In this document: piece after piece, positions 1-51,279 of the stretch
How the letters are laid out: each line of letters starts with the position of its first letter
How positions within the stretch are numbered: position 1 is the first letter of the stretch
From: Psammoneis japonica
Taxonomy: Eukaryota
NCBI GenBank assembly: GCA_008632985.1
Contig: QPGO01000052.1
Location: 372,001 to 436,000 of the forward strand
DNA: 64,000 nt
Reading direction: 5' to 3'
Made by a program: the position numbers and the translations under genes
The notes under the pieces: model-generated
Databases searched by the model: none
What the model saw: only the letters and a program-made list of their open reading frames with translations
What the model was told of the DNA's origin: nothing

Positions 1-490
1 GACTTTAGTGCAATGCAGTTCCTCGACGATTGCAGCAATCCTGGAAAACGAGACATTGCTCAGTTTGTTGAATTCAACAAACACTCCAGCAACAGCGTTG
101 CATTGACCTCTGAAACTCTGCACGAGATTCCGGATCAAGTTGTTGGTTACTTTTCTAGTAAGGGGATCCCGCCGCTTCCACCAATTCAACGAAGTGACGA
201 TGAAATAATCGTGGAGTCCGAGGAGGAAGAGATCGATTTGTCCCTAGATTTCGGGGGTGGAGGAGTATTTGTGGCAGGGGGTGGCAATGATTTTCGGGAT
301 GGTTTTTGAATGAGTAAAGTTTGACGTCTCGTGGATGCGTGTGTTAAGTTGAGTAAAGAGATCTCTGAAAATTTTAATTAACTGGGTTTATTGTACGGTA
401 GAGGTTCAATTTCGCGCAACATAAAGTTGTACGGTAGACCAGTTGAATTAATCGGTCTGCATTACTTCACCTTTCACGCGTCCCTCAAGC

Positions 491-1642: not shown

Positions 1643-2242
1643 GATCAACACAATAAGATAGAGAAACTTCTAGTCCGTATTCGATGATTCATTGAGGTAG
1701 CTTGGGAGCTTCGTGGAACGCACGAATATCAAATCTTGATCGTGAGTTCAGCGCAGTGATGACAGTCCCCGTTCCTGCTCAAAATTTCTCCCTAGCGGGT
1801 TAAGGGGGTTCTCGAGAGGAAAGCTGTAGATAAATGGATTGTCAACCAAGCACCATGCGGGGTGCCAACACACAATACCGGTACATGTACTTACCGTAGA
1901 CGAACTATAACTGAAGCTGCCAAGGGCTGAGGGCCGAGGGCAACCAAGATAAAAGAGCCGATCGCCGATCTGATCAGCCGAGCGATCTGGTTATTGTTCC
2001 TTATTTTCGAAATTTGCTGGAGTATCGCTGTTAGTGTACAGAAACTCCCTCCGAGGACAAACCCCGTCCCACGACAACTCCGGTAAGTTAGTTATGATAC
2101 ACGTTCTACGAGGATTCTTCAACGCGAGCTATGAGCTCCTGGATCTTCCTTAACATGAGAGAACAGACAACGAACAACAAGAGTACTTCTAGTAGCAAGA
2201 ACAACCACCGCAAAACAACACACCATAAGAAAACATCTTGAA

Positions 2243-3139
2243 ATGAAGACCTTCACTCAACTGCCAACGCGGCTTGTTTTCCAACATGGCAATGCTCTCC
2301 CGAGATTTGGACAGAGTGTTCATTCTATTTTCACAATGGCAATAACTCGAAAGGTGTCGCCGCGCATCGCCGACGCACTCTCGACAGTTTCTTCTGAAAC
2401 GCCCATTTCCCTGGCCGTGGCAGAGAAGCAGCATTCCGATTACGTCAATTGCTTGAAACGGCTTCTTCCTGTCGTCGAAGAACTCCCCGCCTTGCAAGAC
2501 TTTCCAGATTGTTGTTTTGTCGAGGACGCGGCCGTTGTCATCCGGGACACGGCACTTGTTATGAATATGGGACACGACGCGAGAAAAGGCGAATCAGAAT
2601 CCATTATTCCTGTATTAGAAAACATAAGAGGAATCAAGCGTGTTTTTGATATGAAAAAGGAGAATGAGTTCGCCACTTGCGATGGCGGCGATGTCTTATT
2701 TACCGGCCGACACGTCTATGTCGGGCTGTCTAAGCGAACCAATCAAGAAGGACTCGAAGTACTGCGAAGCGTGTTTCCCAGATACGAGGTCATTGGTGTA
2801 CCGGTGACTGGAGCATTGCATCTCAAATCATTAGTATCGCACATGGATAGTTACACTTTGGTCGCACCTACGGGAGAGTTGGGAGACTCGCTGATTCGCG
2901 ACATGCAAGCTGCTGAACGGGGTTACGAAGTCGTTCGACTCCCAAATAAACTGGTTTGCAATGTGGTGGCTGTCAATGGAACAATAATTGCGCAAGACGT
3001 GGACTGTGCAGCTTCTAAGAGCGAGTTGCAAGAAGCAGCGGAAGAGAACAATTTGAGATTGGAATTTGTCGATACATCCGAATTGGCAAAGATTGATGCG
3101 GCTTTAACCTGTTGCAGTATCCTATTGGACGCAAAGTAA
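2243..3139 (+). CDS. DDAH: Dimethylarginine dimethylaminohydrolase (amidinotransferase superfamily)
   Basis: FPDCCFVEDAAVV, DGGDVLF, LHLKS and C-terminal LTCCSIL motifs; start may be the later ATG at 2336 (MAITRKV). Confidence 0.9.
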   Translation: MKTFTQLPTRLVFQHGNALPRFGQSVHSIFTMAITRKVSPRIADALSTVSSETPISLAVAEKQHSDYVNCLKRLLPVVEELPALQDFPDCCFVEDAAVVIRDTALVMNMGHDARKGESESIIPVLENIRGIKRVFDMKKENEFATCDGGDVLFTGRHVYVGLSKRTNQEGLEVLRSVFPRYEVIGVPVTGALHLKSLVSHMDSYTLVAPTGELGDSLIRDMQAAERGYEVVRLPNKLVCNVVAVNGTIIAQDVDCAASKSELQEAAEENNLRLEFVDTSELAKIDAALTCCSILLDAK

Positions 3140-5419
3140 GCTAGAGGGTCATTTATCATGATGCGGTCTACAGTACGGTCGCTTCGGTTCAGAATATAAC
3201 GCGAAGGGAGATTGAGACACCGCTTTGGCAATAGATAGGCTGTCACCGACAACGGGAATCCATTTCGTGCTAGACGTTTTCTCACGCAGCCTGGCGTGAA
3301 TGCAACACCAGCTTCGTCGTCGATGCCATCATATACAGAGAGCTCTGTCACGTTGAGACTGACTGACTGAACTGCAAGAACCTTGCCCTCCTTCCACCCC
3401 GTGCTCGCCATCACACAGTACCGGCATCTTCAGAACCTGCCAAAAAGGAGACAATTCATAAGCGACTTCGCACAGTAACAACCCGTGCTGTTGAGTTGCG
3501 AAGACAGGACCTCAGTCAACGAGAAGAATATGCCAGGTCTCCATGATGGTGTCGCTCCTACATACTGACTACAACCAGCAACTTCCGGGTTGAGGTATGG
3601 TTCACGAGCAATAATGCAAATACTTCGCTACTAACGAGCAATTTCTCAGTGACCTGTGTACCGGTAGAAAACGATAACGGAGGAGCGCAAGTGTTACTGA
3701 AAAAGTCAGCGTCCAATGGATTGTGATTTCTTGGCTTGCTGGAGTCATACTCTTCCTATCGAAACACAAACTCGTCATTCACAATCGAGAATACTCCATA
3801 GCTATTCTTGTCGAGAGGTAACGTTTTGCTACTCTCTATATTCAAAGAGAGCTAGGACTTCCAACAATCTCATGGTACCAAAGTGGATGCTCAATAAACA
3901 AGGTTGGCTCGATCTCAGTGTACATGTCAGTGTGTTCTTGGCATAATCATGCTTCAGAATTCATTCGCGTTTGCAGCGGGGCAACAGTGAACATACCTTG
4001 TTTCTCGTGCAAAGTCACACGAAACTCAGCAGTCTTACCGGTATCACTCCCTTTTGAATGTTGCCATCACCGCTGGCTGCATCATATCAAATAGCTTGCC
4101 AAAACAATTTATCCTCTGGACCTTGCCCAGTGTCCCGTCCTGTGTGGTTTGATGGTGGCATTATTACATCCAGGAGTTCGAATTGACATGCAAGTAGTGC
4201 TTGTTCTGTTTTCCGAAGAAGGCTGGCAGCACGGCCGGAGATTGTTCCTCTCCACAAAATTCCTGGTTATCATGTAAGGCGCATCGTGAGAGTTCTGTTT
4301 GTTTTGTTGCAGACGACCTTTCACACGCATCGAATTGTGCATTCGATAACGACAGTGCTGATCGTTAATGGAATGGCTCCCAAAACTTGCCACACTCTTT
4401 ATTGATCAAGTCTCGTGAGCTAGGCACAACGGAGATGAGGGCAAAGCAACGTCAGTTTCTTGTTCGTACATAATCACTTCCACATATTCACAATGATGCA
4501 GAGTCTTAGAGAGCAATAGAAACATGACAGAGGTGAAAGAGCTATCCAAGCAAAGTGGAGCTCTCCGATAATGCACTTTACACAAGGAGCATACCTCTTC
4601 TATCTTGACAACCACCAGCATCTATTGGAGACAATCACACACATTGTCTGCGTCAAAAAAGCCCATCTGTTCCAATCTTCCATTGCTTCGATGAAGAAGG
4701 TAGATGCAGCAACAATAACATAACCAGCAAATCAACCCGCGAACACAACCGTCAACGCAAGAAATCTCTTATCTCTACGTGGTATGGCATCTCATTTTCC
4801 AAGCCAAATCACTCTCGTCTTTCTCCTACTTGCAACTCATTGTCTCCACCGATCATATATTACAAGGCTCATCTTATTGCTGTTGGTGGACAAATAATAA
4901 ATACAGAAAGACACGAAGCGGAACCCACGGAAAGCGACAAATAGGGTCGTCGTCAAGCTAGACGAAGGTTCTCTCTTCCCCCCAAAGAATAAAAAAAATG
5001 ATCCCAGAGCGCGAGGGTCTTGTCATAAAGAGAATTGCATTACTGATGTTTGATTGGGTGGCGCCAACATTTCAGATGGAAGAAGCAAAAAATAAACTAC
5101 AACATTCAACCTCGAGTTGCTGATCTAGGGCATGCTTCCAAGGCACACGACAATCTCCCACTGCCTCCTTGTATGCTTTCAGTTTCTCCGCCATCCATCA
5201 CCATCCATTCAGACATTCAGACGCTTCCGTTGTTCGGCATTCGTTTTCACGCTGTGCCACGACGCATGTCTTTACCCATTCTCTCAAATACGAGGCGCCT
5301 TTGCCATGTGCTTGTGCTTATCTGAGTAGGAACCAAACAGCGTCGATGCAACAGGTGGAAGACTTTTGGACCACATTTGCTACATACGGTACAGTGCTTC
5401 TACGGTACGTACAGTAAAA

Positions 5420-11643: not shown

Positions 11644-12096
11644 CTTTGATTAGTGTACTAGATAGTATAGTAGACTATGGTATATTCCAGAAAGTGTGGT
11701 GGTGTGTGTTGTTGGTACCGATACTGTATCCGAAGGACTTCATTTTTCTGCCGCAGCCGCCATTGGGAGCTAATTTACCGCGCCATCGCGCGAAGCATTG
11801 TTTTAGTCAGTTGAATCAAAATGTCAGATGCAAAGTTGGTTCAAGTTCAAAGAGATGGGGTGTAGAAATCTACGGAGGAATTAGTACGAAATCTAACAAT
11901 AATTTTCCGGGTTTCTTTATTTTTGAAATTTTGGTGTTCGGTCGGTCGTCATCCTCGCCCGCTTTTTGTGCCACATCACACCACATCACACAATGAATAC
12001 ACACAATGCAAATGGCTACCGGTATTGATTTTTGCGAAGCAAGGAAAGTAGCATCACTGCAATGCAATTTTGCATGGAGGCAGAAAGAGAGAAGAA

Positions 12097-13857
12097 ATGA
12101 AATGGGAGCCGCTAACAAGACGGAAGAATATACGGCTGGAACAGGCTATCAGCAGCAGAAGATTTGTTGGGATTCTTGCTTTTCTAATGTGCTTTTCTCG
12201 GAGCGTCTCCGCGTTTCAGCCCCCCAGAGTTTGGAGGTCGACAAGATCTCGTACGACTCGGTGTGTTAAATTGAATGTACATGATCTGGAAAGCAGACAA
12301 GAAGAAAAGATCGTCGGCCGCACGCGTGTTGAAGTAGAGAAAGAGTCGTCTTTGGATGACAGGATATACTCAGAAAACACCATTCTACCTGCTCAATCCA
12401 TTGGAACAACCATGCCGTCGCCAGGAAACGCTAGTGACGAACAATCGAGTAAAAGAAATACAGAATTGATCATTATGATTATCTTGTGCTGGGGTGTGGC
12501 ATGCCTCTCCGCATTGGATCGTGTCGCAATGTCGGTTGCAATTCTCCCAATGTCACAAGAGTTTGGTTACACGGAAACAGTCAAGGGACAGATCTCGGCT
12601 CTATTCTCGATTGGATATGGTTGTGCCGTTCTGCCTAGTGGTTTGCTAGTTTCGTCTAAAGCATCTTCGCCGCGCCTTGTGTTGGGATGCGGTATTCTCT
12701 TGTGGAGCTTAGCCACGCTTGCAACACCTCTGGTGGCTGCAACCGGCCTTCGCAGCGACGTCATTGCGATTGCCTTCACCATTTCCCCGCTGTTGACTGC
12801 TAGAGCTGTTGTGGGTGCAGCTGAAGCAGTCGTGTTACCATCACTTCAACGCCTCATGTCCAGCTGGATCGACTCAGGTCAAAAGAGCTTGGCTGTAGCG
12901 GGGATCTTTTCTGGGTTCCAGGCAGGTACGGTGGTTGCCTATTTGCTGAGTCCCTTTGTCATTGATCAAATGGGTGGATGGAGAGGCTTGTTTTATTTTT
13001 ATGGATGCATCGGTTTGCTTTGGCTCGTGCCGTGGCTTATTCTCGCAAAAGATTCTCCGGGGACACCGTCAGCTGAACAGAAAGGGGGGAGCAGCGCATC
13101 TAACTTGGTGGCTTTTGGTGCGGAGGAGGAATTCTCCGCTCTGGAGTCTGCGTCTTCACCGCCGCTGCAAGAAGCAGCTGCGAGGCTTTTGAAGTCTGCT
13201 CCGTGGAAAGAATTGCTGTCTTCCAAGAGTTTCTGGGCAATGACTATCGCACATGCAGCAAACAATTGGGGCTTGTACAACAACTTGTCTTGGACCCCAA
13301 CGTTCTACGCTGAAACATATGGGCTCGATGTAAAAGAGTCAGCTTGGTTTTCGATATTGCCCAGTGTCACTGGTGCGGTTGGGGGATTACTAGCAGGCGC
13401 CCTTGCAGATACTGTCATCACGCGAATAGAACACAGAGAAGAGAGCGAAGGAAGAGAATCGTACAACGGAAGCGTTCGGACGAAAACTCGCCGTATCTTT
13501 CAAGGCATTGCGCTTTACGGTCCAGCAGCCATGTTGGCTCTTTTGTCGGCGCACCTTCCTGAAGAACCTTGGGCTGCCCAAACAATCCTTATGGGAATGG
13601 TGGGGTTACAAGCGTTCAATGCGGCAGGCTATGGCGCGGCTAATCAGGAAAAGGCTGGAGAAAAGTGGTCCGGTCTCTTGTACAGCCTTTCAAGTCTTCC
13701 TGGTGTCGCTGTGGGCAGTTTTGGTGTGTTCGTGACGGGGCAGGTGTTGGATGCTACTCATGACTGGACAATCGTGTATGCAATTAATGCTTTTGTCAAC
13801 GTAGTCGGCGCAACCGCATTTGTGACACTCTATGATTCAAAAAAGGAATGGGACTAG
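12097..13857 (+). CDS. MFS anion/phosphate transporter (PHT4/ANTR, SLC17 family), probably plastid-targeted
   Basis: LDRVAMSVAILPM, GWRGLFYFYG, FWAMTIAHAANNWG..LSWTPTFY; about 12 hydrophobic segments; signal + SAF-QP motif. Confidence 0.9.
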   Translation: MKWEPLTRRKNIRLEQAISSRRFVGILAFLMCFSRSVSAFQPPRVWRSTRSRTTRCVKLNVHDLESRQEEKIVGRTRVEVEKESSLDDRIYSENTILPAQSIGTTMPSPGNASDEQSSKRNTELIIMIILCWGVACLSALDRVAMSVAILPMSQEFGYTETVKGQISALFSIGYGCAVLPSGLLVSSKASSPRLVLGCGILLWSLATLATPLVAATGLRSDVIAIAFTISPLLTARAVVGAAEAVVLPSLQRLMSSWIDSGQKSLAVAGIFSGFQAGTVVAYLLSPFVIDQMGGWRGLFYFYGCIGLLWLVPWLILAKDSPGTPSAEQKGGSSASNLVAFGAEEEFSALESASSPPLQEAAARLLKSAPWKELLSSKSFWAMTIAHAANNWGLYNNLSWTPTFYAETYGLDVKESAWFSILPSVTGAVGGLLAGALADTVITRIEHREESEGRESYNGSVRTKTRRIFQGIALYGPAAMLALLSAHLPEEPWAAQTILMGMVGLQAFNAAGYGAANQEKAGEKWSGLLYSLSSLPGVAVGSFGVFVTGQVLDATHDWTIVYAINAFVNVVGATAFVTLYDSKKEWD

Positions 13858-19414: not shown

Positions 19415-22008
19415 GATATAACGTACTTTACCGGTAGCTGCAGTGTGCAGTGTTAGATTATGTTGGTGGATGCTTTGTGCCGTGTGCCGTTCGCAAAAGG
19501 AATCTTGATGTTGGACGTGTCGCTGCGGGCGGACGGGTACTGTGTGGGCTCATTACATTGTCTACGCAGGGCCTACAGTAAGTACGGTACCAGCACTGTA
19601 CAGTGCAGTCAAGATAAAAATTTTGATTTTTGATTTCACTTTTGTCATTCTCAGAGAGAAGGATGTCCACATTGTTCTTGGGCTTCGCGGTTTGTCTGCA
19701 CCAAAGACTTTGAACAATGGCGTCGATGGCTCAATGAGTTGTTTTGTCAAACTCAGAGGAAACCACCGATTTGATGGTGGTCAAGTGTGGGGTGAGATTC
19801 TTTCACACTTTCGAACAATGCAAGGGGGCTGACAAAAGGGTCGTTGCATCTGGGCCTGGCGAGACACTGGGCTGGGCCAAAGGAAAGCCACATCCTCAGC
19901 AAAACAGCTCACAAAAACCATTGCCACCAATCTTGGTTGGAATGCTGTCAATGGCGGCATTGTCAAGAAGGTGTTGGAGGGAACACACTCAAACTCTCTT
20001 GCACAACCACCTCCACCAATGCCGTTGCGGTCTGTGCAAACAATCTCAAGTGGAAAAAAGCAGAGTTTGCCAGCAGGTGCAAGCGCGTGGAATTTGAAAA
20101 GATGAGCTGTCCAAGAACGTTTTTGTTTGCAGCCTGTCCACAAGCTCATGTCAAGCAAATCAAGGCATGTGGGCCCTCTTTTCAAGGTCTGCCATGACTG
20201 CCCCTCTGATGATGAGCCTCAATGAGGACGTGTGGAGAAAAAAAGGCCAGCAGCACTGTTGGCTTTTTTGAGGGAGTCAAGCTGAAGGAATGAGGTGTTT
20301 CTTTGGACAATTTAGGGACAATGAGGGTTGGCAGTCATTGGGCGAGGTCAGCCTGTGGTCAGCCCCAAACCCTGACTTTGTCTTGCCTGTCTGTCTCTGG
20401 TCCGGTTGGGGGTCAGGGCAGGGAGGGGGAGATGCAGATGGATTGATGGGGGCTGATTGCTGTCAATGAATGGTTTTCTCACCAGAAATCATGCGTTCAC
20501 ATCAAGCTCCAACAAACTGCATCTTTGGCAGTCAGCCACTTTCATTTGTGACCCAGGTTTTGTAAAATTTCCACAGGCTCTGGTGGTGTGTTCCTGCAAC
20601 CTTGTGCAGGTCCAGCATGCTGCATCAAAAGCCTCATTCAGTTTGTTTTTCTCATGTTCATTTGTTTTATTTTGCATCTTGATGATGGGAAAAGAAACAA
20701 AATGAACAGCCAAAAAGGCAGGGCACTTCAGAGCCAGAAGACCAAGAGAGCCAAATTGAGTGTGAAGCAAAGAATCAGGCCAAAAGGAACATGCCACCAC
20801 CAGTGGCAGGCTCAAAAGAATTCCACATCTCTGCCATCATTTTCGTGACAGCAGCAAATGTTGGGTTGGACATGAGAACACTGTTGTGGCAACTTCCGGC
20901 AAGAAACCAAAATGTGAAATTGACACTCGTGCCTCCATCAATTTGGTTGAGAGGATGAAGAAATCACCAGAACTGAGCTTGATGAGAAAGACTTGTGGAT
21001 GCTGCAGAGTTCTTTCATCATGTTCCTCACAACATCAACTCAGACTGGTGGCATGTCACTTGCCAGGCCAATTTTGAGTGCTCTGTCCTCTTGCTTTGTT
21101 CAGAGAGTGAAAAGCATGCACAGTTTCTGGGCCATGCCAGCAATCCAGAGCAGTGCAAGACCAACTTGAAAAAATCCTTGCTCCTGTGAATCTGCTGGTG
21201 CACAGCTGCATCAGGCACATGTCAAGCAAGAACATGATGGTCACAAGAACAAGTGCAACTTGGTTCAAGGAACCCATCCATTGAGCCATGTCTGGGGCTC
21301 TCATTTGATTTGGTCATGGTCCATTCAAAAAGAATTCTGACACCAAGAAGCTGATGAAAGACTTAAAATGGAAATTGGTTCCAGCCCTGGCAAGGGTCAT
21401 TGAGCTTGAGAAAGACCTGCCAAGGCTTTTTTGATGCTTGGTTTGGGTCCAAGATCTTTGGAAATTGCAGTGCTTGTGCTCAGGTTTGAGCCTGCTTTTT
21501 GTTGGCAACAGGTTTGATTGCATGCTCATCAGATGTCACTCACTTCTGTCCTCATTTTGAGAACTTGGAGTGGCCTGCAGAGTCAAGGGACTGTCTCAAG
21601 GATGGGCTCCCAGTGTCTGTCATTGCAAGATTGATGGATTGGAAATCTTGGAAAGAGTGGCCTGAGCTTCTGTGTCTGGTGCATGTGCAAGGTGCAACTC
21701 CAAGCCAACACCAAAGATTTACAGTTTTGACTGCCCTGTCCATTGACTGATGAAACATTGGGAGCTTTGTGGTCACAAGCTGGGTCCGGTTGTGAGTGAG
21801 GTCAGAGGTCTTCAACATTTGTGAGACAGTTGAAGAAGTTGTTCAATGCTGGTCTTGGTGTGTGCTCCAGCCACTCCATGAGAAGATCTGCAGCACAGCA
21901 GGCTTGTTGTTGTGGTGCCAACATTGTCACAATTTGAGTTTTTGGCAGGTGACCCAGTTTGAAAAATCTGTTTCTGTGCATGTGCAAAGGTGAGAGGATT
22001 GGGCAAGA

Positions 22009-22284
22009 TGACAGGATTTGAACAGGATTTGGATGCGCGCGAAGCATCGCGCGCTGTTTAGTTTACCGCGCACAGTTTTGTGTGCTTTAGTTCCGCGCGT
22101 TCGCGCGCGATGTAGTTTGCTTTCGAGCCACAAGGCTCACAAGAATAATAACAGTAGCCCGATTATACCGACTTACACGTCTTTCGGCTCCTGTAACGGT
22201 CTCTGAGCAGAGACTCATCTGCTATTTAGACAGCAGTAAGGAGTTATTGTTTGAATTCTTGCCATTTGCCTTCATTTTCTGTCA
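22009..22284 (+). repeat. 5' LTR
   Basis: Aligns without gaps to 28876-29151; 10 mismatched positions, all transitions. Confidence 0.97.
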
Positions 22285-22301
22285 GATTAACAGTCTTGCT
22301 C
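22285..22301 (+). other. Putative primer-binding site complementary to a tRNA-Asn(GTT) anticodon arm
   Basis: GATTAACAGTCTTGCTC; reverse complement GAGCAAGA-CT-GTT-AA-TC reads as anticodon stem, loop and 2 nt. Confidence 0.6.
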
Positions 22302-23257
22302 ATTGTCAACCCATTGAGCAACCGCCATCGTCGTCGTTGATTTACCAACGACGCTATTTCAATTCTACGTGGACCTCCGTATATATTCTACATACATCGG
22401 CAAGTCTACGCGCATCCAATACCAGGGCATCGGCAGGAAGTTAACGTCACCGTCAAGTCTCCTTACCGCTGGATATCTGGATTGATTATACTACCTTTGG
22501 TCGCTGAAGACTTATATTCAACGGTCATATCCAAGTCTATCCTTGATCCTCATCCCTTGATATACCTATTCATCGGTTAACGGTCAAGAACCCTACATAT
22601 TCAAGGATCTTCGTCGCTGAAGACATGTGTATATATACATATCTTCACGGCCAAGAACCTGTACCCACTCTTCGGACTGCGGTTTTGCTGCCACTCTACA
22701 GGCACACCGAGTCCATTGTACCTGATCTACCCCGGACTGCTGGTGCTCTACAGTTCTACTAGGTCCACGAGGACGACTGTGAGAGCAAGCAGCCGTGATT
22801 GCAGCCTGCGTTGGGGCGAGGGTGCTTTCCCGCGTTTGTTCGTTCGTCCACAGCGCCTGACGCCTGCGTCAACTGGCCAGCCTGATCGGGAAATCCAACC
22901 GACATAAAATAAGAACGGTTCGGGGGTCTTGTCCACCTCCAGTCAGCTTGCCTGCAGGGGTTTACAACCCGCTGCTCCGCTCGCAAGCAACCCAAAGCGC
23001 CACCAGCTGCGGGTTCGGACGTGCCGGCACAACTCTACGGACCGGACAGGAAGTTTAGCACTTGACAACGAACGGGACAACAAAGCCCGGCGACTTCTGA
23101 TTTTTTTAAGACAGTTCAAGATTTCAAGTCAAGTCCATTTCAAGTCAAGTCCATTCTCACCCAAGTTTCAAGTCTGCCTTCGTTTTTCGAGTCCACCTTC
23201 GAGTCTGCCTTCGCTTCCCAATCAGAATTGATTGTCCTGACACCACTTTTGTCTGCC

Positions 23258-26200
23258 ATGGTTCTCACTCGTCAGCAACAAATCGATGGTTTTGAGCACG
23301 TTGTTGGAACCGTGCTTGCCCAAGGTGCTGGGAGTCCTCTTCGTTTGGCTTTGGCTCAAGACGGCACGGACTCGCATCAGGAACTGTTCACGTTCATGCC
23401 GTCCCAAATCGACTCGCTTGAGTGCGACAACGGCACCAATGTGGTCCCTTTGCCTCGTGGTTATAAGAACATGTTAGCAGCACCAGTTGGTCTGTGCATT
23501 GTCAAAGCACACAAAGGTCTTGACGTTGCCAACGACTCCTCTTTGTTCACGCATGACGAGTTCCTTGCCTGCCGCCTCAGCCCGGACTGCATGTCCTCTG
23601 TGTCCATCGGCAGCTCACCCCTTGCACCTCCACATGTCACCAACCCGACCAAGGCACGCGACCCGGTGCGAGACTTCAAGCGAGGCATCAAGCGTGATCC
23701 CACCGCTTTCACGGCTCTCAAATCCGACAAGCAGTGGCACACTTGGCACACCTCACTTGTGGCACAAGCCCGTGCCCAAGACGTCGAGTGCATTCTAGAC
23801 TCGTCGTGCAAACCAACCAGCCCCGAAGACAAACTGCTCTTTGCTGAACAGCAAAAGTGCATGTTCGCCGTCTTCGAACGCATCCTTCTCACCAACAAGG
23901 GCAAGGCTCTCATTCGCGAAAATGTGGGGTCTTCTGACGCACAGACCGTCTGCCGCTCCTTGTCTGAGTGCGCGCTTGCCTCCACCCGCGCATCCATCGA
24001 GTCCTCCACCCTGCTCACGCACCTCACCACCGCACGTCTTGGTGATGGCACTTGGAAAGGTCCAACCCACGGGTTCATCCTTCATTGGCAAGATCAGTTG
24101 CGCAAGCACGAGGCACTCATCCCCGCCAGTGACCACTTCTCTGAAGGACAGAAACGCGTCATGCTCGAGAATGCCGTGCACCCTGTCGAGGAACTCCATG
24201 CTGTCAAGAACCAAGCTGATCAGCATCGTACGCAGAGTGGCAAGAGCCTCACGTGCGATCAATGCTGTGGCTTGCTCCTCTCCGCGGCAGCTCAGCACGA
24301 CAGCACGTTTCAACCCAAGACGACACCTCGAGCTCCCCGATGCGCCATGTGCGCACACGACGTCCACTCCGAGGAACCGTCCGACGATGTGTTCTGCGAC
24401 ATTGACAGTGACGTTGACGTCCTTCAAGCCAATGCCACCTGCACCCGCGGTCCCAGCCTCACCGGTGTCCAATGGAGACGTCTCCCTCCCGACCACCAAC
24501 GGCTCTGGGATTCGTTGCCCGATTCCTCCAAGGCGATCATCCTTGAGCACTCTCGCCCGCCTCCCCACAACCCGCGAGCCAGCAACTGCCATGAGTCTGT
24601 TACGGCCAACCTTCACGACCAACACCTTGGGAGTGACGGTGATGTCAACTTGTCCAACACGACTCCTGCTGACTGTGGTGACTCCGCTGCACATGTGGAC
24701 GCCACTTCGGACAATCCCATCCTGGCGCACCTCACCAAGCGCAAGCCACTGCCACCCGGTGATCTGCAATGTCTGTTGTCTCCTAACCAAGCCCCCACTG
24801 CCAGTCGACCGGGGCCATCCGCCGCTTCCTCTACCCCGCCAGCTTCTGCAGATAACGTGGAACTTAACGGCCGCACTTGCCGCCGCGTTGACAACCACAA
24901 TGTCATTTACTCTGCCTCTGCTCATCGCTCCACACGCACTGGCGCTCTAGTCGATCGTGGGGCCAACGGCGGCATTGCTGGCGACGACGTTCGCGTCATC
25001 GCACGCACCTCTCGCCAAGTCGACGTTCAGGGCATTGACGACCATCAATTGGTGGACATCCCCATCGTCACCGCTGGTGCCGTCATTGAGACCCAGCGTG
25101 GTCCCGTCATCGCCATCCTCCATCAGTGCGCATGCACGGGAAAGGGCAAGACCATCCATTCCTGCGGCCAGCTCGAATGGCACAAACAGGATGTCAACGA
25201 TCGCTCTGTCAAGGTGCCCAACGGCTTGCAACGTATTGCCACTCCTGATGGCTGTGTCATCCCCATTGACATCAAGGCTGGCCTGCCTTGTGTTGCCATG
25301 CGACCTCACACTGACGCCGAATGGGACACCCTGCCCCATGTCATCCTCACCGGTGATGACACATGGGACCCTTCCGTCCTCGATCACTCTGTCACTGACG
25401 ACGACCAGTGGTACGACGCGATCTCTGACCTGCAGGACGATCCCACTGCCAACCCATTTGACGAATGCGGCAACTGCCGTCACCGTGTCGTTGTCAACGA
25501 GACCATCTTGTCCGCTTCCTTGTCTGACGATCACGCGTCCGCCCTCGATGATCACCTCATTCCGAACGACGACGTGTTCTACGAGTGTCATCTGCATGCG
25601 ATTGACCCCACGGGCGATGACGTTCCACCTCCGGAGCGCACTGTAAAGCCCAAGGACCCCCCCTTCGAGTCTCTTCGGCCTTGCTTTGGCTTCCTACCTG
25701 CCGACACGGTCCGTCGCACTTTTGACTGCACCACGCAGCATGCCCGCATGCCCGCCGGCACACACCTTCGCAAGGCCTGCAAATCACCCAACCCCGCCCT
25801 TAATGTGCACCGCCGCAACGAGCCTGTCGCCACTGACACCGTTTGTGCCGACACCCCGGCCGTCGACTCTGGTTGCACCAGCGCCCAACTGTTTGTTGGC
25901 ACCGAGTCTACCGTCACTGACGTCTGCGGCACTGAGACGGACAAAGAGTTTGTCAACACACTCGAGGATCAGATCCGTGAACGTGGTGCACCATCCAAAC
26001 TCATTGGCGACCGTGCTCAAGTTGAGATCAGCAACAAAGTGCTCGGGATCCTGCGCGCCCTCTTCATCTCCAGCTGGCAAAGTGAGCCTCACCAGCAACA
26101 CCAAAACTTTGCCGAACGTCGACACCAGACCGTGAAGCGCATGGCGAACACTGTCATGGACCGTTTTGGTTCGCCCGCCCACACATGGCTCCTGGCGCTC

Positions 26201-28928
26201 ATGTGCGTGTGCTTCACACTCAACCACACAGCGTCCCCACGTCTCCACTGGCGCACGCCCCTCGAGACTCTCACTGGATCCACCCCGGACATCAGCCCAT
26301 TGCTTCGCTTTCACTGGTGGGAACCAGTGTGCTTCCACCTCGATGACTCCGATTGGCCGTCCGAATCCCGTGAGTTGCGTGGACGCTTTGTTGGCATTGC
26401 TGAGCACGTCGGCCACCAGATGACCTTCAAGATCCTATCTGACGAGACTCAAAAGATCCTCTGCCGGTCCAACGTTCGCTCCGCTGCCCCCGATCCTGCC
26501 GTTCGAAACCTGCGTCTTGATCCTCCTGATGGGGAGCCACCTGAACCCATCATCAAATCTCGCCATGACGACAACCCCGTCGATTCTACTGATGGGGAGA
26601 TCAGGACACCCAAGATGCCAGTTTTCGATCCGCAAGACATCATTGGACGTACCTTCCTCATGCAGCCACAAGAGGATGGACAACGCCACAGAGCTCGCAT
26701 CGTCAAGGCCGTCGAAGACCACGAATGGAAAGTGAACGGCAATCCCGAGCTCACTAAGTTCGTCTGCTCTGTCAACAATGACGAATACGAGGAAGTCCTT
26801 GCCTGCAATGACATCATGAATCACATTGAGCAAGAAGACGAAGACACCACCATTTGGAAATTTCGACGCATCGTATCACACGAAGGACCTCTGAAGCCTC
26901 ACGACCCAACCTGGAAAGGCTCAAGCTACAACATCATGCTTGAATGGGAAAGTGGGGAGATCACGTCCGAGCCTCTTGCCATCATCGCCAAGGACGACCC
27001 CGTCACCTGTGCCATCTATGCACGAGAGAACGGACTCCTCGACACGGATGGCTGGAAGCGGTTCCGCACTATCGCGAGGCGCCAAAAGAAGCTATTTCGC
27101 ATGGCCAACCAAGCCAAGCTTCGCTCCTTCCGCACTGCACCTCGCTACAAGTGCGGATGCGAAGTTCCCCGGAACTACAAACACGCCATGTCACTAGACG
27201 AACGCAACGGCAACCGCAAGTGGGGAGACGCAACTAATCTCGAGATGGACCAACTCGACGAATACGAAGTCTTCCATGACTGCGGGCCCTTCAAGTCTTC
27301 CACTCCTCCTGCGGGACACAAGAAGATCCGAGTGCACCTGGTGTTCGACGTGAAACACGACGGTCGCCACAAGGCACGACTCGTAGCCGACGGGCACCTC
27401 ACGGACGTACCTGTCGACAGTGTTTACTCCGGAGTAGTCTCCCTCCGTGGCCTTCGGCTGATGATTTTCCTGGCCGAACTCAACGAGCTGGAGACATGGG
27501 CCACCGACATTGGCAATGCCCACCTTGAAGCCACCACCAAGGAGAAGCTTTACATTGTAGCTGGACCCGAATTTGGCAAACTCGAAGGACACATCCTTGT
27601 CATCCACAAGGCACTGTGTGGACTTCGCAGCTCCGGTCTCCGCTGGCACGAGCGCTTCGCCGACTGCCTGCGAGCTGAAGGCTTCTTCCCCTGCCGCGCC
27701 GAACCCGACATTTGGATGCGCAGGAACGGCGACCACTGTGAATACATTGGCGTTTATGTGGATGACCTCGCCATTGCCATGAAGGACCCTCAATCTTTCA
27801 TCGACACTCTCACGGAAAAGTGCAAGTTCAAGCTCAAGGGTGCGGGACCCATTGAGTTCCATCTGGGTTGCGACTTTTCCCGGGACCCCGACGGAACCTT
27901 GTGCCTGTCTCCGCGCAAGTACATCGAGCGCATGGTCGACAGCTGCACCCGATTGTTTGGGGAGAAACCTGCCACCAACGCCTTGTCACCTCTAGAGAAG
28001 GGTGACCACCCCGAACTGGACACTTCCGAACTGCTGGGACCCGATGGCATTCACAAGTTCCAGTCTCTTGTTGGTTCACTCCAATGGGCAGTGTCCCTTG
28101 GTCGAATTGACATTACCACGGCTGTCATGTCACTCTCTAGCTTCCGAGCTGCGCCCCGTCAAGGCCACTTGGATCGTGCCAAACGCGTCTGTGGGCACCT
28201 CTCCAAGATGCGACACGGTGCTCTCCGCGTTCGTACGGAAGAGCCCGACCATTCGGATCTCCCTGCTCCGGCCCCATGAATGGATGCATTCCGTGTGTGG
28301 TGAAGCAGAAGAGATGATCCCGAAGGACGCTCCACCGCCCCTTGGCAAGTTCGTCACTGCCACCCACTGCGTCGATGCAAACTTGTGCCATTGCATGCTC
28401 ACCGGACGCTCTGTCATGGGAATGCTCCACTTCCTCAACAAATTCCCGGCTGATTGGTTCTCCAAGAAACAAGCCACCGTGGAGACTGCAACCTGCGGAT
28501 CTGAATTTGTTGCCGCAAGGAATTGTGTCGAGCAGATTGTCGACCTGCGCATCACCCTGCGCTGCCTTGGCGTCCCGATCCGCAATGTCAGTTACATGTT
28601 CGGTGACAACAAGTCGGTTGTAGACAGTGCCACCATCCCGCACTCCAAGTTACACAAGCGACACACCGCACTGTCGTTCCACCGTGTGCGTGAGGCAATT
28701 GCCTCTGGTTGCCTTGAGTTCCACTTCATCGAGGGCTCCCGCAATCCTGCTGACATTCTCAGCAAGCATTGGGGTTGCTCCCAAATCTGGGACCTTCTCC
28801 GCCCTCTCATGTTCTGGAACTTCATCCCATCCGAAGTCGAATCTGTTTCTGTAGCTCCTCAAGCAAACTGGGGAGTGACAGGATTTGAACAGGATTTGGA
28901 TGCGCACGAAGTGTCGCGCGCTGTTTAG
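23258..28928 (+). pseudogene. Copia gag-pol polyprotein with one frameshift (~28273) and many Tyr->Cys/His substitutions
   Basis: Protease ALVDRGANG; integrase VATDTV..SEPHQQHQNFAERR; RT HLVFDVKHDGRHKARLVA, DIGNA, GVYVDDL; RNase H VDANL..GSEFVAA..FGDNKS..NPADILSK in the 28002..28928 frame. Confidence 0.93.
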
Positions 28929-29151
28929 TTTACCGCGCACAGTTTTGTGTGCTTTAGTTCCGCGCGTTCGCGCGCGATGTAGTTTGCTTTCGAGCCACAA
29001 GGCTCACAAGAATAATGACAGCAGCCCGATTGTACCGACTTACACGTCTTTCGGCTCCTGTAACGGTCTCTGAGCGGAGACTCATCTGCCATTTAGACAG
29101 CAGCAAGGAGTTGTTGTTTGAATTCTTGCCATTTGCCTTCATTTTCTGTCA
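28876..29151 (+). repeat. 3' LTR
   Basis: Direct repeat of 22009-22284 followed by TSD CAAGA. Confidence 0.97.
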
Positions 29152-32100
29152 CAAGAGAAGAGCCTTCATGACAACAACTGTGACCCAATTTGGGACATGT
29201 GGGTGTTCCACACCAACACGCCAGGTGCCCATGAACAATTTTCTGGCAGTGGTTGAAAATTAGAAAAATTGAAGTGCTTTGTTGGTGCTGATCACAAAAC
29301 CAGTGTGCACGCTGCTCCATTGCCAAGCACTTGCACACCATTGCTGGCATTGTGTGCTTTTCAATTTTTTGTGGTCAACACAAAAGGAACACTGTGCATT
29401 GCAAATCTCTGATTGCATCATGCCATGAAGTTCTGGGCTTGTGGGATGTGCCAAGTTTTCTCAGATTTGAAATGTTCTGTTTTGGAGTTGTCGGGTTGTT
29501 GTCTTTTGGCACAGTGCAAACTGCACAGTGTGCCATGCACCACAAACTGAATTTTGAATTGTGACTCCTTTTCTGTTCTGCTTTTTTCCCTGCTTTTTTC
29601 ATCCCATGGTCTGCAAGGAGAACGCACATGATTGTCTTTTTTGTCCACAAACTTGTCCTCAAACACCCGCGCAAGTGCCGTTGCATGCATCTCATTGTCA
29701 CATTTGTGCAAATTTGGAACAGTTTCTTTTTTGCGGCAGGTCCAAGACAATGGAGCATTCATGTCCAGTCTGTGTGTCAAGCAGATGAGGGCGTTGCACC
29801 CTTCTGGTGCTGCATTTGGCAGCACTTGCACAGGTCCTTCTTCCTTCCCTGGTCTCAACTCTGGACAGCACAACAGACACCCAGTTTTTGTGCACAGCTT
29901 CAGTGGTGAACAAACAGCTGGTGACTGCTGTCACTCCCTTCCAGCTTCTTGTGTCCTGCAGCATCATCAATGACAAATGCAGCTTGTTTTGCTTCTTTGA
30001 GGCACACAACACTCCTGGTGTCTGCAGGAAGTTGCTCTTGATGCAATGCTTGAGCACAGCATCACCTGCTCAGTTTGCAGCTGCAGCTGGCAAAGCACAA
30101 AGGCCACTTTGCTGGGTTGTTGCTGGAGGGCATCTGCAACCCAGGGTTCATTCTACCTTCTCTTGATTCTGTGCCTCTTTCTTCACATTTTTTCCACAGT
30201 GTCTTGTGTGTTGAAAAGGCCAGCACTCTTGTGCCATCACACACATTCACGCAAGTTGTCATCAAATGTTGTCATTGAAGTGAGCACTTTGCCATCTCCA
30301 CTGTGCAGCTGCCTCACTCTTTTTTCAAAGCATGCTCCTGTGTTGATGGAGTCTTTCTCCTTGTTCCCACATGTTGTGTGTTTGGTGTGTGTGAGGCAGC
30401 TGCTGACCATGTGCAATGACTCTCTTGCTGCCAACAAAGTTGGTGTCTGCCACAGCAACAATGTCTCCATCTTAGAAATGACTCAGCAGCCCCAGCAATG
30501 TTCCATCTCAGAAATGTTTCAGCAGCCCTCTGCCCCATTCTGAATCATCTTTCAAAATGTTGTGCATGCCACAGAGCTTGGTGCCACCAGCAATTGACCC
30601 ATTCAGCATGTCTCTCCCTGCAAAGTGGGTGCACATTTTTCCCTGCTTGTGGGCTGGCTCTGGCTCTTTTTTTTGAAGTCACCTGCAAAAAAGTGTTTGA
30701 GCCTTGGCAGGGCTTGCCTGAGTGCTATTCTCTGATGTGCAGCCACATTCTTGCAAACCTTTTTCAAGCTCTTTCAGCATAAAAGGAAGTCTCATCCACC
30801 ACCACAGGTGTGCGTGACTCCATGCTTCAGTCTTTGCTTTGGCAATCTTTTTCTTCCTGTTGCTTTCAGAAAGCCACCCTTTTCTCCTTGATGAACAGCA
30901 CTGCCTTTGAGGACAATTGTGGTGACTCCAGCTGCTGCTGTGTCTGTGACAGCACATGAGTTGTGAGAAAAGCTGATTCATGAAAGAGCAGCATTCTCTC
31001 ACATGCTGAACTGCCAGACCAGCCACTCTTGTTGGCTTGTGACTTTTTCTTGTTCTGTGCAAAAAGATGCCAGCTGGGTGGCACCTCATTTCATTGCTTC
31101 AACAACAAGCCTGGCAGCAACCAGTTTGTGGCAGCTCTTGCTGTGAAACAACACCTGGTTGAGCCTCTCCTGTTGCTGCTGGTCTGTTCTCAAAAACTCC
31201 CAGCTGTCATCTCAAAGCAGCACAGCTTTGTTGGTGTGTGGGTGTGTGGGTTGGCTTTTGTTGACCAGCTGGCATGCTGGTGCAGGGCAGCAGCAAAGAC
31301 TGCTCTGCCAGGCCAACCACAACTTTAGCTGGTCTCTCATTTTTGCAGCCAATTTGGCACATTGCTGCTGTGAGGGATCACCCTTGCTCTGCAACCTTCA
31401 CAAATGCACAACACAAGGTTCTTCCAGAATGTCTTGTGGGGGCTGGAGAGGGTCAACAAGTCTCTTGCTCCATGCACACATGCCTGCAAGTTGCCACCAA
31501 ATGTTGCCATGGAGCTGAGCTCTTCTTTGCCATCTTTTTTGTGCAGCTGTTTCCAATTTTTTTTCAAACAATGCCATGTTTGTGGAGCCCCTGTCACCCT
31601 TGTTTCTGCCAAGTGCTGTGTGCTTGGTGTAATTGTTCAGCAGTTGTTGACCATGTGTGATGTTGTTTGTGTCTGCAAGATCCACATGACCACCTCAGAA
31701 ATGTTCCAACACTCTGCTCCACTCTGGATCTTCTTTGAATCTGTGCATGCCTCACAAAGCTCACTCTGCTCAGCTGCTGACCTGGCCATGCTCTTGACAA
31801 AATTCCACACACGTCTTTTCTTGTGAAGGGGTCAGTGCACTTCTTTTCCCACTGACTCCAACTGTTTCTAAAGTTGTCCACAAAAAGGTATTTTGCATGC
31901 AGTTGTGGCAGCAAAGAGCTGCTAGATGGCTTTCACATTGCTTTTGTGTGCCAAAGGTCCATGCTGTCCACCCATCTGCAGAGCTTTGTGCAGCCTTGGA
32001 GTTGCCACAATCTTTGTGTGCTGTGCATGGAGGGCCCCCAGTGTGTGTGCTCAAATGTCAGACTTGAGTGTTGCTGCATCAAGTGCTCCCATCAAAAACA

Positions 32101-48529: not shown

Positions 48530-51279
48530 ATGCTTCAAGACTCGTTTCTCTTTCTTTGTTTGACGGCATTGTGTCTTCCTAAGACGCGATGGGCTGCAGA
48601 CTTGATTCGGGCACTTGGAGAAGTTTTAGAGGTCACCGACGGGCAAATTCATGGGGCACTTCCGCTGCTGTATTCTCCTCAACTCCATGAAGAAAGTATG
48701 CTGTGTCATGCAGAAAAGATGGCGGCTTCCCTACGATCAAATATGACGCGGGAATCGGCAGTTGGGGGTTTCATCACCATATTTTCAATTATTCTGCATG
48801 GGCAGGAACTAGCGGCGCTGGAAAAGCCAAGCAAACTAGGAAAAGAAAAGCGGTTAGATCCTAAAGTGGTGCAGCTGTTGCGGTTTGATGCACGCACGTC
48901 TGTGTTGCTCCGACGATTGGCGTTCTTGCTAAGAATAAAGCTGTCGTCGTTATCAAAGCTGGAAGATGTCGCTATACGACAGATGCAGCAGAGCGTCATG
49001 CAAATGCGACAGTCTGAAAATGCGGGCGAGGGAAAGAACAGATTAGTACGAAAGCAACTGATTCGCGCTAGTAAGATTTGTGGAGGTGCCATTGCAGCTG
49101 GGGGTATGTTGGCACTGACAGGGGGCATGGCTGCACCGGCGCTGGCAACCGGTCTGGCAACGTTAGGGTTTGCCAGTGCGGCAACTTTTGCCACCACGGC
49201 TGCGGGTAAGTGCCATTTTCGAGTGTGACGCCTTCCTGCCTACTCTTACGCTCAATCCAGAGTTATTATACACCTTTCAGTCGCAGGTTTGCTAGGAGGG
49301 GCTGGTGCTGGATATGGCGCCTACAAAATGACCAATAGAACCAAGGGGCTGACGCACTTTGAATTTCAACAGATTAGTTCCCAGCGACAAACTGAGCATG
49401 GAAATGATTTCAGTCTTACGACGATGAAATGAAAGGCATGACCGTTTACATCTGTGTCAGTGGCTATCTCCGCCAAGCTGGTCCAGTGTTAAATGACCCC
49501 GAAAGCATTGATCGCACATCGGCCGTGTCCTCCATGTTGTTCTCGACCGATGCCACGAATTCTCCAGATTTTTATGCGCCATGGGGAGCAGAGCCGCCCG
49601 TTAAATTCAACTCACTGTTGCTAGACAGATTCTACTCCGTGGTCGCCCCCGAGCGAAGGAAACTAGTTCCTCATTTGCTCAAACGGTATTCTGGGCAAGA
49701 GGAGACACTGATGAATGAACTAGAGCGTCTCTATGGCATACACCCAAAGAAATTGGCGCCACGCCAGGCGCAGCCAAATTACTACGTGGGCGACGACGAA
49801 ACCAAAATCTATAGCATCGTTTTGGACAATGGCATTGCTGCTGCCAGAAGAACATTCGAATCTACGAGTACCGGGGAGGAACCGCGGCTCGAGCCGCTCC
49901 CTGGTACCGCGGAGGGCATGAAATTGTTTGTAGACTCAAATCAACCTTGGAGTTGTGCTTGTGAAGATCTTGAACTAGACGGGGTCGGAGAACCGCCGGA
50001 TGCCATCGAGGAGCCGAAAATCGTTGATGACGACATTGTTAAACCTGAAAGTGAAACAGAAGGTTCCAGCATGAGCCCATCAGAAGTGCGAAACGCTCCA
50101 CGTTGTTTGCCCAGTAAGATACGAGACGCCCTCGCGGTGGAGATGGAAGCCATTAATTTGAACCAGTGCACCGCGAAGGAAGGTGTCTTTCCAGATGGGA
50201 ACGATTTCGAGCACCGACATAACATTGAACGCCCTCAGAAGGATGGAAACTTAAGCGATGACAAAGATGAGGAAATGGAGGAGCTTTCAGTTTGGTCAAC
50301 TCAATCTCTGTCATCTTCACAGCACTCAATTTCCTCCACGCAGCATTCTCGTCCATCGGTTGAATCTAGTCGAAGCGAAGTTTACTGGTGGAGAGAAAGC
50401 GTGGCAAATCATGGGGATCAATATACTGTCATTTGGGAACCAGATAATTTGCTCGCAATTGGCAAAGGTCTACAAGAAGTTATTGTGGAAGGTCTATCCC
50501 GTGGTATTATCGAAGGTTTGAAGTGGACTGTTCTGAGTGCTGTTGTGATGGCGGTCGCTATCCCTACGGCGATCTTCCAGTTCATGCATACGCTTGATGA
50601 CAGCTGGTGTCTAGCTATACGCAAAGCCGACGAAGCAGGAAAGTTGTTGGCCGATGCTCTCATGTCTGAATCCCATGGTAATCGTCCTGCGGTTCTCGTT
50701 GGTTACAGCGTTGGTGGCCGTGTTGTCGGAAAGTGCTTAAGTGAGCTAGCCGCAATTGCCACTGGAGGTGCTAAAACAAACGGGAAGGATGACGCTGATC
50801 CAGAAATACCGCCTATAGAAGAAGAGTTTGAGTTTCTCACACAAAGGATTGAGTGTGACACAAGTCTATCTGAGAAGGAGAGGAAGAGGAGGCTTCGTGC
50901 GGCGACCATCGTTCGTGACGCCGTCATAATCGGCGCTCCAATCGACACGTCTCCTCGAAAGTGGGCACGGCGTCGCTCTGTCGTTCTTGGGAGGCTCATA
51001 AATGTGTACAACAACAAAGACTGGGTCCTTGCTTTGATTTATCGATACAAGCGTTGGTCTGTCCTTTCCCTTGCCGGTCTCAGGCAGATCAGGCTTCCCG
51101 TTTCCATTCAGCACGAGTTGGGCCAAGTGGAAAACTTCAACGTATCCGATCTTGTCGATGGCCACGGAGACTATCCAGCCAAGATGAGAGACATTCTAGA
51201 TCGTGTTGGAGTAGGTGATGTTAGTTGCGAGGAGTATCTTTCTCACTACTTTCCAACAGGACCGAAGGCATCGAAATAA
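48530..51279 (+). CDS. TMCO4/DUF726 family protein (intron 49206-49280; apparent 1-nt frameshift near 49410; start uncertain)
   Basis: GGMLALTGGMAAPALA, GAGYGAYKMTNRT, HGNRPAVLVGYSVGGRVV, GRLINVYNNKDWVLALIYR, LAGL, VDGHGDY. Confidence 0.85.

Follow-up and report, generated by a model that had tools for sequence, protein, structure and literature searches.

Within a 64,000-nt stretch of the Psammoneis japonica genome (NCBI GenBank assembly GCA_008632985.1, contig QPGO01000052.1, positions 372,001–436,000 of the forward strand; this whole stretch is hereafter the window, and all coordinates refer to it), we found a complete Ty1/copia-type long terminal repeat (LTR) retrotransposon whose gag-pol frame is nearly open and in which 31 of 49 conserved tyrosines have become cysteine or histidine. 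These replacements are the coding trace of TpA dinucleotides that have turned into TpG or CpA, to very different degrees along the element and, in its LTRs, after insertion. The element is a recent insertion in the genome of a pennate-type diatom, and it was probably struck by a process that acts at the DNA level on TpA and is aimed at silent or repeat DNA. Its parts, from left to right, are as follows.

22004–22008, forward strand: left copy of the target-site duplication CAAGA, the same five bases flanking the alignment ahead of the 5′ LTR and behind the 3′ LTR
22009–29151, forward strand: complete LTR retrotransposon, with paired 276-nt LTRs and the CAAGA duplication on both sides
22009–22284, forward strand: 5′ LTR of 276 nt with TG...CA ends, nearly unmutated, a direct repeat of 28876–29151 (96% identical)
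22285–23257, forward strand: untranslated leader of 973 nt, TpA-rich to ~22760 and TpA-poor from ~22900, with the 5′ edge of the mutated tract inside it
23258–28264, forward strand: gag-pol frame, 1,669 codons without a stop, with a protease-like DRG motif, an integrase-like D,D35E and an RVT_2 reverse transcriptase
23792–24770, forward strand: gag segment with early CpG decay on top of near-complete TpA loss, where CpG-type changes cluster
26900–27950, forward strand: less-converted patch over the reverse transcriptase (RT) core with YVDD kept, delimited by tyrosine retention and TpA content
28272–28276, forward strand: one-base slip in a run of C that shifts the frame, at the junction of the two frames; sister contigs are short of one base at 28272, 28275 or 28276
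28275–28925, forward strand: remainder of pol (RNase H part) in the shifted frame, ~17 codons of it inside the 3′ LTR
28876–29151, forward strand: 3′ LTR, partly converted after insertion, as judged by comparison with the 5′ LTR
29152–29156, forward strand: right copy of the target-site duplication CAAGA, in the alignment flank

The assignment to the Ty1/copia type rests on the RVT_2 domain, the TG...CA LTR pair, and the target-site duplication. The domain was recognized by Pfam (RVT_2, PF07727; E-value 7e-27, 95 bits against a cutoff of 31.6) at residues 1351–1562, and a 61-sequence alignment places a conserved D...D-35-E pattern, putatively the integrase motif, upstream of it at residues ~860–955. 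By tblastn, the gag-pol frame is 57% identical to its relative P0001 over 1,680 columns, and the shifted pol frame is 71% identical to residues 1653–1834 of the same protein. The Pfam integrase, gag, and protease profiles gave no match to the window or to P0001 at E-values up to 1, and a phmmer search of the Protein Data Bank with P0001 returned no chains. An earlier note on this DNA, made by a model from the sequence letters, had described the frame as nearly open; it runs for 1,669 codons, meets the one-base slip, and continues for ~217 further codons to its end at 28925 within the 3′ LTR. We also noted that the pol frame extends into the 3′ LTR beyond the end of most aligned relatives, and it may be speculated that a CAA codon near 28860–28862 is a former TAA stop.

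The loss of tyrosine is best seen against relatives of the element, which were gathered by a protein search with the whole polyprotein (8,000 candidates scored, 1,532 relatives, 120 listed). Among those listed, identity reaches 57% across the whole query and 61% across parts of it, and a second search, with residues 148–448, returned fragments of 165–527 a.a., none above 60% identity. The first 60 relatives were aligned with the window frame, which was read through with an X at the slip. Tyrosine occurs 15 times among the 1,673 residues of this frame. Four tyrosines (residues 69, 551, 719, and 775) precede residue 1177, and the other 11, including that of the intact YVDD, fall in residues 1177–1555 (nt. 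26786–27920), matching the 4 and about 11 that the earlier note had counted; the shifted 310-a.a. frame adds one. Tyrosine, cysteine, and histidine make up 0.9%, 3.2%, and 4.7% of the window protein, compared to 3.8% (2.9–4.6), 0.9% (0.5–1.3), and 3.5% (2.6–4.3) in the 120 listed relatives. At the 49 columns with tyrosine in at least 70% of the 60 relatives, the window has tyrosine 12 times, cysteine 23, histidine 8, phenylalanine 5, and tryptophan once. Twelve relatives taken as controls keep tyrosine at 37–44 of 46–49 such columns, with 0–2 changes to cysteine and 0–2 to histidine each. Every other residue class is retained in the window at 78–100%, and among the 409 columns conserved at 95% or more, the window differs at 18, with 13 of these being tyrosine to cysteine or histidine. 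All nine motifs in which the earlier note had suspected an altered tyrosine are present where it placed them, and the share of the 60 relatives with tyrosine at the changed residue is given below (motif, nucleotide position, share).

DIGNAHLEA, 27521: 1.0
KALCGLRSS, 27617: 1.0
RVCGHL, 28190 / 28196: 0.57 / 0.93
THCVDAN, 28368: 0.85
ETATCGSEF, 28494: 0.97
TLRCLGVP, 28563: 0.92
AERRHQTVK, 26123: 0.68
DGCVIPI, 25253: 0.92
HQCACTGKG, 25127 / 25133: 0.97 / 0.42

The observation itself is thus confirmed, and the interpretation that the earlier note placed on it is partly supported, as set out below. Given the conserved tyrosine columns, the direction of change is TpA to TpG or CpA, and the two codon routes that had been proposed, TAY to TGY for cysteine and TAY to CAY for histidine, are supported by transitions of just this kind. 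Across 901 conserved columns, the window has 125 mismatches, of which 53 are explicable by a single transition (38 TpA-type, 10 CpG-type, and 5 other); tyrosine accounts for 31 of the 38 non-synonymous TpA-type changes. The dinucleotides of the element body (23258–28928) carry the same signature, with observed-to-expected ratios (O/E) of 0.20 for TpA, 1.28 for CpA, 1.50 for TpG, and 0.94 for CpG, while TpA stands at 0.81 in the 5′ LTR, 0.75 in the leader, and 0.5–0.8 in the gene islands of the host. That no mutator is involved, the family being simply GC-rich and TpA-poor with cysteine and histidine as normal functional residues, is scarcely credible. Such a view could appeal to the GC content of the element (0.54–0.60 vs. 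0.44–0.52 in its surroundings) and to some intact-looking relatives that are TpA-poor too (e.g., L006, with a TpA O/E of 0.27). However, it does not sit with the change of 13 tyrosine columns conserved at 95% or more in 60 relatives, with different residues at the same codon in sister copies, or with two LTRs of one element that differ at TpA sites, and the TpA-poor intact relatives keep tyrosine at 3.4–4.7%.

The LTRs date part of this activity. Both LTRs of a retrotransposon are identical at insertion, and the TpA conversions by which they now differ therefore took place after insertion, on DNA. The pair shows 10 differences, all transitions (8 TpA-type and 2 CpG-type). At six of these places, the 5′ LTR keeps TA where the 3′ LTR has CA or TG, and one ancestral TA site accounts for two more, reading CA in the 5′ LTR (22045–22046) and TG in the 3′ LTR, meaning that it was struck once in each. 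Of the 16 ancestral TpA sites that we count, the 3′ LTR has lost 7 to conversion and the 5′ LTR 1 (Fisher 0.037), with 9 and 15 TpA, respectively, present today. As the 5′ LTR was spared while the identical sequence at the 3′ end was converted, position in the element matters and not sequence alone.

Both strands were struck, with the coding-strand A being favored (33 tyrosine codons now encode cysteine and 14 histidine; binomial 0.008), and the two outcomes follow each other in random order along the element (21 runs vs. 20.7 ± 2.9 expected). The processive or strand-co-ordinated action that had been suggested in the earlier note is not borne out, as neighboring sites show no co-ordination, and strand-co-ordinated tracts are ruled out at this spacing by the runs test. 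We also weighed editing before integration, either of the RNA genome (ADAR-like, adenosine to inosine) or of the single-stranded complementary DNA (cDNA), as by APOBEC3 with C. The excess of coding-strand A-to-G at tyrosine codons would suit it, and ADAR enzymes prefer a U before the edited A, according to a passage of discussion in a preprint (bioRxiv 10.64898/2026.01.13.699255). We nevertheless consider it very improbable: the LTRs, made from one template and identical at insertion, bear 8 TpA-type differences, coding-strand T-to-C is frequent (the 14 histidines, and C in 71% of the positions before A-starting codons), and flanks that do not resemble transposons, together with other blocks of the window, carry the signature to saturation.

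The bases next to the TpA also have an effect. In the blocks of the window from which TpA has been erased (described below), the surviving TpA tend to have an A after them on one strand: 61 of 85 lie in a TAA/TTA context, compared to 447 of 1,159 in gene islands (p 4e-9), an indication that the mutator acts poorly on TAA. Survivors in the form TTAA number 13 of 85 vs. 44 of 1,159, and in the form GTAC 0 of 85 vs. 114 of 1,159. Within the element, tyrosine codons after T are retained at 5 of 11 sites and all others at 8 of 49 (p 0.049).

Conversion is regional and incomplete, as the earlier note had held. Tyrosine retention is listed here for columns with tyrosine in at least 40% of relatives, at sites now reading tyrosine, cysteine, or histidine.

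23258–23999: tyrosine retained at 0 of 5
24000–24999: 1 of 9
25000–25999: 1 of 12
26000–26899: 0 of 6
26900–27949: 10 of 17
27950 to end: 1 of 11

The RT-core patch thus keeps 10 of its 17 tyrosines, compared to 3 of 43 elsewhere (Fisher 5e-5), and a permutation test on the best run of 19 sites, which allows for the post hoc choice of segment, gives 0.004, rejecting uniform conversion along the element. Its TpA O/E is 0.40–0.43, vs. 0.00–0.33 in the rest of the body. At the 5′ end, the border is abrupt, with 54 TpA in 752 nt (22009–22760) and 6 in the following 350 nt; within the leader, 39 fall in 22285–22760 and 6 in 22761–23257, and the O/E drops from 1.13 (22400–22799) to 0.29 (22800–23199). 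Overall, ~6% of sites are converted in the 5′ LTR and early leader, ~40–45% in the RT core and 3′ LTR, and ~93% in the other coding sequence. Neighbor-base context was rejected as the cause of the patch, as tyrosine codons preceded by C are retained at 4 of 7 sites within it and at 1 of 17 elsewhere.

The patch might instead reflect selection on the tyrosines of the RT core during replication, or recombination with a less mutated copy, either of which we regard as unlikely. The overlap with the RVT_2 domain speaks for selection, as does the similar density of non-tyrosine TpA inside and outside (8 in 351 patch codons vs. 27 in 1,535), which places the TpA excess of the patch mostly in tyrosine codons; silent outcomes also dominate where they are available, so selection did act on the lineage at some stage. 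Yet 7 of the 17 patch tyrosines were converted, including two that are tyrosine in 60 of 60 relatives (NAYL to NAHL and KALYGL to KALCGL), and the RT was therefore not kept intact. In addition, a silent site in the patch (27070) keeps TA where the entire sister depth has CA, and conversion in the 3′ LTR, which is non-coding, is intermediate to a like degree (7 of 16).

Tyrosine is so conspicuous among the changes probably because synonymous TpA was already scarce when they occurred, leaving tyrosine codons as the main non-synonymous targets. The systematic conversion of tyrosine put forward in the earlier note is thus a matter of the targets available and not of a chemistry specific to tyrosine. 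In the window frame, the base before A-starting codons is T in 4% and C in 71% of cases, compared to 18–35% T and 36–40% C before other codons. The DNA of metagenome relatives (protein identity of at most 70%) served as a baseline for composition only, and in the 35 of normal TpA content, T precedes isoleucine, threonine, and methionine codons in 31% of cases and lysine and asparagine codons in 29%. At the 82 conserved isoleucine, threonine, and methionine columns that the window retains, 64 codons follow a C and 4 follow a T. With the 31% baseline, an estimated ~19 silent CA outcomes are set against 3 non-synonymous TG outcomes for these residues, whereas tyrosine codons, which have no silent route, show 8 CA and 23 TG (Fisher 1.7e-5). 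Since the silent outcome was taken on whichever strand offers one, we infer from this codon pattern that replicating ancestors would have shed their removable TpA under purifying selection, before selection ceased to act on this copy or on its parent. A single unfiltered wave on a TpA-normal ancestor was rejected, as it predicts ~30 non-synonymous A-start-to-G-start changes at conserved columns, where 5–6 are seen.

The intact-looking copia relative L006 (marine metagenome contig, positions 1–3974) has a comparable codon usage, with 3.7% tyrosine, 29 of its 34 TpA in tyrosine codons, and T before only 1% of A-starting codons. In the 1 kb past its frame, TpA and CpG both stand at ~0.2, and another organism may share the process. 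Five further metagenome relatives (L002, L005, L013, L038, and L043) have kept their tyrosines at a whole-contig CpG O/E of 0.16–0.44 and a TpA O/E of 0.46–0.55, and look like intermediate CpG-poor states.

Sister copies were sought in the contigs of four sequencing runs (X1–X4) of one sample, aligned to the element with a likeness threshold of 80%; the display covered 40 of the 401 variant rows. In X1, 14,011 contigs fitted, and 336 of the 392 variant places are transitions. Thirty displayed rows lie within the element, 12 of which make up six double differences of CA vs. TG, 7 are TA vs. CA or TG, 6 are CpG-type, and 5 are other, which places 25 of the 30 at TA- or CG-derived steps. The CA-vs.-TG sites are 23004/5, 23047/8, 23484/5, 24107/8, 24296/7, and 24348/9, and the two in the leader (23004/5 and 23047/8) are mixtures of TA, TG, and CA across sister contigs. 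At 24107 and 24296, the window has histidine codons where sister copies read TG (cysteine) in 89–100% of the depth, and these opposite outcomes indicate that the same tyrosine codon was struck independently on opposite strands. TA itself persists in the sister depth at 23484 (~35%), 23995 (84%), and 22627/22629 (56–72%). Separately, we noted an in-frame length variant at leader position 23101, where 3 bases are missing in 19,577 of 37,781 of the X1 sister-contig depth. No look-alike of the LTR and leader was found in the sequence index searched.

These copies bear on a further explanation, by which the parent copy was already hypermutated and was mobilized by the proteins of intact elements, with only the LTR differences having arisen at this locus. 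We think this rather unlikely, although it has substance: 3,450 of the 14,011 X1 contigs are at least 99% like the window, and the shared TG at 24107/8 and 24296/7 is one converted state common to many copies. On the other hand, the CA of the window at these same two sites requires an unconverted TA in its ancestry, TA persists in some copies at the sites named above, conversion of the 3′ LTR did happen at the locus, and a protein with 13 changes at tyrosine columns conserved at 95% or more would be mobile only with the help of intact elements.

Several points weigh against our preferred reading of a recent insertion struck by a TpA mutator. The sister contigs of the small runs (X2–X4, 185–902 nt) are only ~1–3% different from the window. 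One 902-nt stretch (23700–24601) shows 28 differences and includes 10 ancestral-tyrosine codons (at a threshold of 0.4), all of which now encode cysteine or histidine. Much of the converted state may therefore go back to a parent that was itself mutated and be common to the copies through descent, in which case the body was not caught mid-process at this locus and the LTR changes alone are demonstrated to have occurred there. The four runs are probably from the source sample of the window itself, and hence lend no independent support, while the ancestral states were read from partial variant rows and from relatives whose identity does not exceed 60% across half the query or more (57% at full length). 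The purge of synonymous TpA has its own difficulties: the number of silent conversions at codon boundaries was estimated against a baseline from the elements of other organisms, and the TpA content of the 5′ LTR and early leader is normal, which fits poorly with a purge lasting throughout the lineage. In addition, 27 non-tyrosine TpA survive where only 3 of 43 tyrosine TpA do, and only 11 of the 27 are in a refractory context. The statement in the earlier note that the element is caught mid-process consequently holds for the LTRs (7 of 16 vs. 1 of 16); for the body, mutation in place and inheritance from a mutated parent give the same picture.

Within the element, TpA loss precedes CpG loss, as the body has a TpA O/E of 0.20 while that of CpG is 0.94. 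Eight of the 10 CpG-type changes fall within 23792–24770, a segment picked post hoc that comprises 112 of the 901 conserved columns (binomial 2e-6), and TpA is at its lowest at 23600–24399 (O/E 0.06). Sister contigs retain CG at 23894, 24198, and 24341.

The element sits within one TpA-erased block of older repeat DNA. Such blocks (5.5–9, 14–16.3, 19.6–22.0, 29.15–33, 36–48, and 62–64 kb) amount to ~26 kb of the 64-kb window and alternate with gene islands. Their TpA O/E is 0.00–0.12 and that of CpA/TpG 1.5–2.2, and their CpG O/E is 0.02–0.34, except for the 62–64 kb block (0.68–0.75). In the gene islands, TpA stands at 0.4–0.8 and CpG at ~1, and TpA loss is thus limited to the repeat blocks, with the islands that hold the following genes being spared. 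Each of the five is a long uninterrupted frame in an unmutated island.

494–1669, reverse strand: non-specific endonuclease
12052–13854, forward strand: MFS transporter
49408–51276, forward strand: DUF726 protein
51417–53210, reverse strand: methylcrotonoyl-CoA carboxylase beta chain
60070–60945, reverse strand: RNA polymerase III subunit Rpc25

The carboxylase marks the host as a diatom, sharing 65–78% identity with the best hits that bear a name. Ten of the 120 rows listed name an organism, and nine of these are from diatoms (Seminavis, Cylindrotheca, Nitzschia, Amphora, Pseudo-nitzschia, Attheya, Helicotheca, and Mayamaea); the tenth is a partial protein of a bacterial metagenome-assembled genome. 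A protein atlas placed the carboxylase no more closely than in Eukaryota.

When TA becomes TG or CA, no new stop can arise, other than a TGA from a TAA, and this is why the frame of the element has stayed open. Counted over six frames, TGA makes up 219 of the 278 stops of the body (here 22900–28875; 26 TAA and 33 TAG) and 651 of the 698 in the 36–48 kb block (30 TAA and 17 TAG), vs. 225 TAA, 267 TAG, and 516 TGA in a gene island. Owing to this loss of stops, TpA-erased DNA holds long spurious frames on both strands, with 50 frames of at least 80 a.a. in 22000–30500 (e.g., 383 a.a. at ~23795–24950 on each strand), and the openness of a frame in such DNA is no evidence of function.

Taken together, the preferred reading would run as follows. 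A process acting in silent or repeat DNA would change A to G at TpA on either strand and, given that TpA is self-complementary, a strike on the coding strand would turn tyrosine into cysteine (TGY) and one on the other strand would turn it into histidine (CAY). Replicating ancestors would first lose synonymous TpA under purifying selection, with the tyrosine codons, bound to TpA, remaining. The process would then act site by site without strand memory, with a moderate preference for the coding-strand A and a very uneven intensity along the element, and the same process has probably erased nearly every TpA of the older surrounding repeats, where CpG is also gone, CpG decay coming later than TpA loss. 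The signature, its direction and patchiness, and the activity in the LTRs after insertion are established by the data, while an enzyme acting on DNA, its guidance by silent chromatin, and the earlier purge are our inferences. An adenine deaminase active on DNA and a thymine-modifying enzyme are both candidates, and either would fit. Going further, diatoms might run a dedicated, chromatin-guided DNA-editing defense on silent DNA, directed at TpA and later at CpG and spreading unevenly from within an element, against which copia elements in an arms race would have shed every TpA that can be removed silently (L006 has TpA almost solely in tyrosine codons), with tyrosine as the remaining lethal target; we offer this wider proposal tentatively, as a possibility that we would not yet expect to hold.

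If TpA editing of silent DNA does act in both diatoms and a chlorarachniophyte, it is probably a widespread and overlooked eukaryotic genome defense, with a chemistry opposite to those of repeat-induced point mutation (RIP) and APOBEC. A single element here presents graded stages, from the untouched 5′ end through the RT core and 3′ LTR (~40%) and the rest (~93%) to the first CpG losses in gag and the erased flanks, and these stages give an order of events as well as tract borders against which chromatin maps can be set. There is also a warning for annotation, as TpA-erased DNA, having lost its TAA and TAG, misleads gene finders and selection tests. The purge at the codon level seen in intact relatives points to a possible adaptation of transposons to the mutator.

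Among known systems, RIP in Neurospora and other ascomycetes turns CpA into TpA, raising the A+T content and creating stop codons, and depends on duplication and on the sexual cycle. The likeness to the present element is considerable, with transitions at one dinucleotide made at the DNA level on both strands, repeats and transposons targeted, neighboring genes spared, and coding capacity killed. The analysis of RIP is treated in the RIPCAL paper (PMC2621366). The direction here is the opposite, TpA to CpA or TpG, with G+C rising and no stop possible, and fungal RIP is ruled out by the body composition (TpA 0.20, CpA 1.28, and TpG 1.50) and the change of conserved TAY to TGY or CAY. APOBEC3 and ADAR enzymes do their work ahead of integration, on RNA or single-stranded cDNA, and leave their mark on one strand. 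They share with the present case a retroelement riddled with one kind of transition and a preference for the preceding base; here, however, the LTRs diverged after integration, with 8 TpA-type differences, and both strands were struck (33 cysteines and 14 histidines), unlike what such editing would leave. Deamination of methylated cytosine in silenced repeats brings about CpG decay and leaves TpA untouched. Changes of CpG to TpG or CpA are indeed seen in the flanking blocks and 10 times in the element, but TpA loss in the element is far ahead of CpG loss (0.20 vs. 0.94).

Searches of the literature gave no report of a TpA signature in diatoms. A paper found with "diatom" and "hypermutation" (PMC9258296) concerns antibody genes and was ruled out, and the searched passages of the paper on the CoDi elements (Maumus et al. 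2009, PMC2806351) contain neither "RIP" nor "dinucleotide". The preprint on Bigelowiella natans describes how integrated DNA of giant viruses and virophages is hypermutated at TpA (Mettrop et al., bioRxiv 10.64898/2026.01.13.699255, 2026), with new mutations measured in real time in mutation-accumulation lines. According to its main text, the changes are almost exclusively A-to-G and T-to-C, all at TpA and giving TpG or CpA by strand, as in our element; foreign DNA is targeted and ordinary genes are spared, as in the window; and reverse transcriptase and DDE domains are overrepresented among the coding sequences depleted of TpA. The authors propose a DNA adenine deaminase, which they do not identify. 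The words "diatom", "CpG", "context", "trinucleotide", and "tyrosine" do not occur in that main text, and the CpG-type share of changes seen in our element is likewise absent from it. B. natans is a chlorarachniophyte with single-copy viral insertions in which new mutations were followed in lines, whereas the diatom case concerns an LTR family with very many variants near saturation, seen in its end state only. To this comparison, the present element adds a series of graded stages inside a single copy, the absence of strand memory, the order of TpA before CpG, the effect of neighboring bases, and evidence of selection at the codon level.

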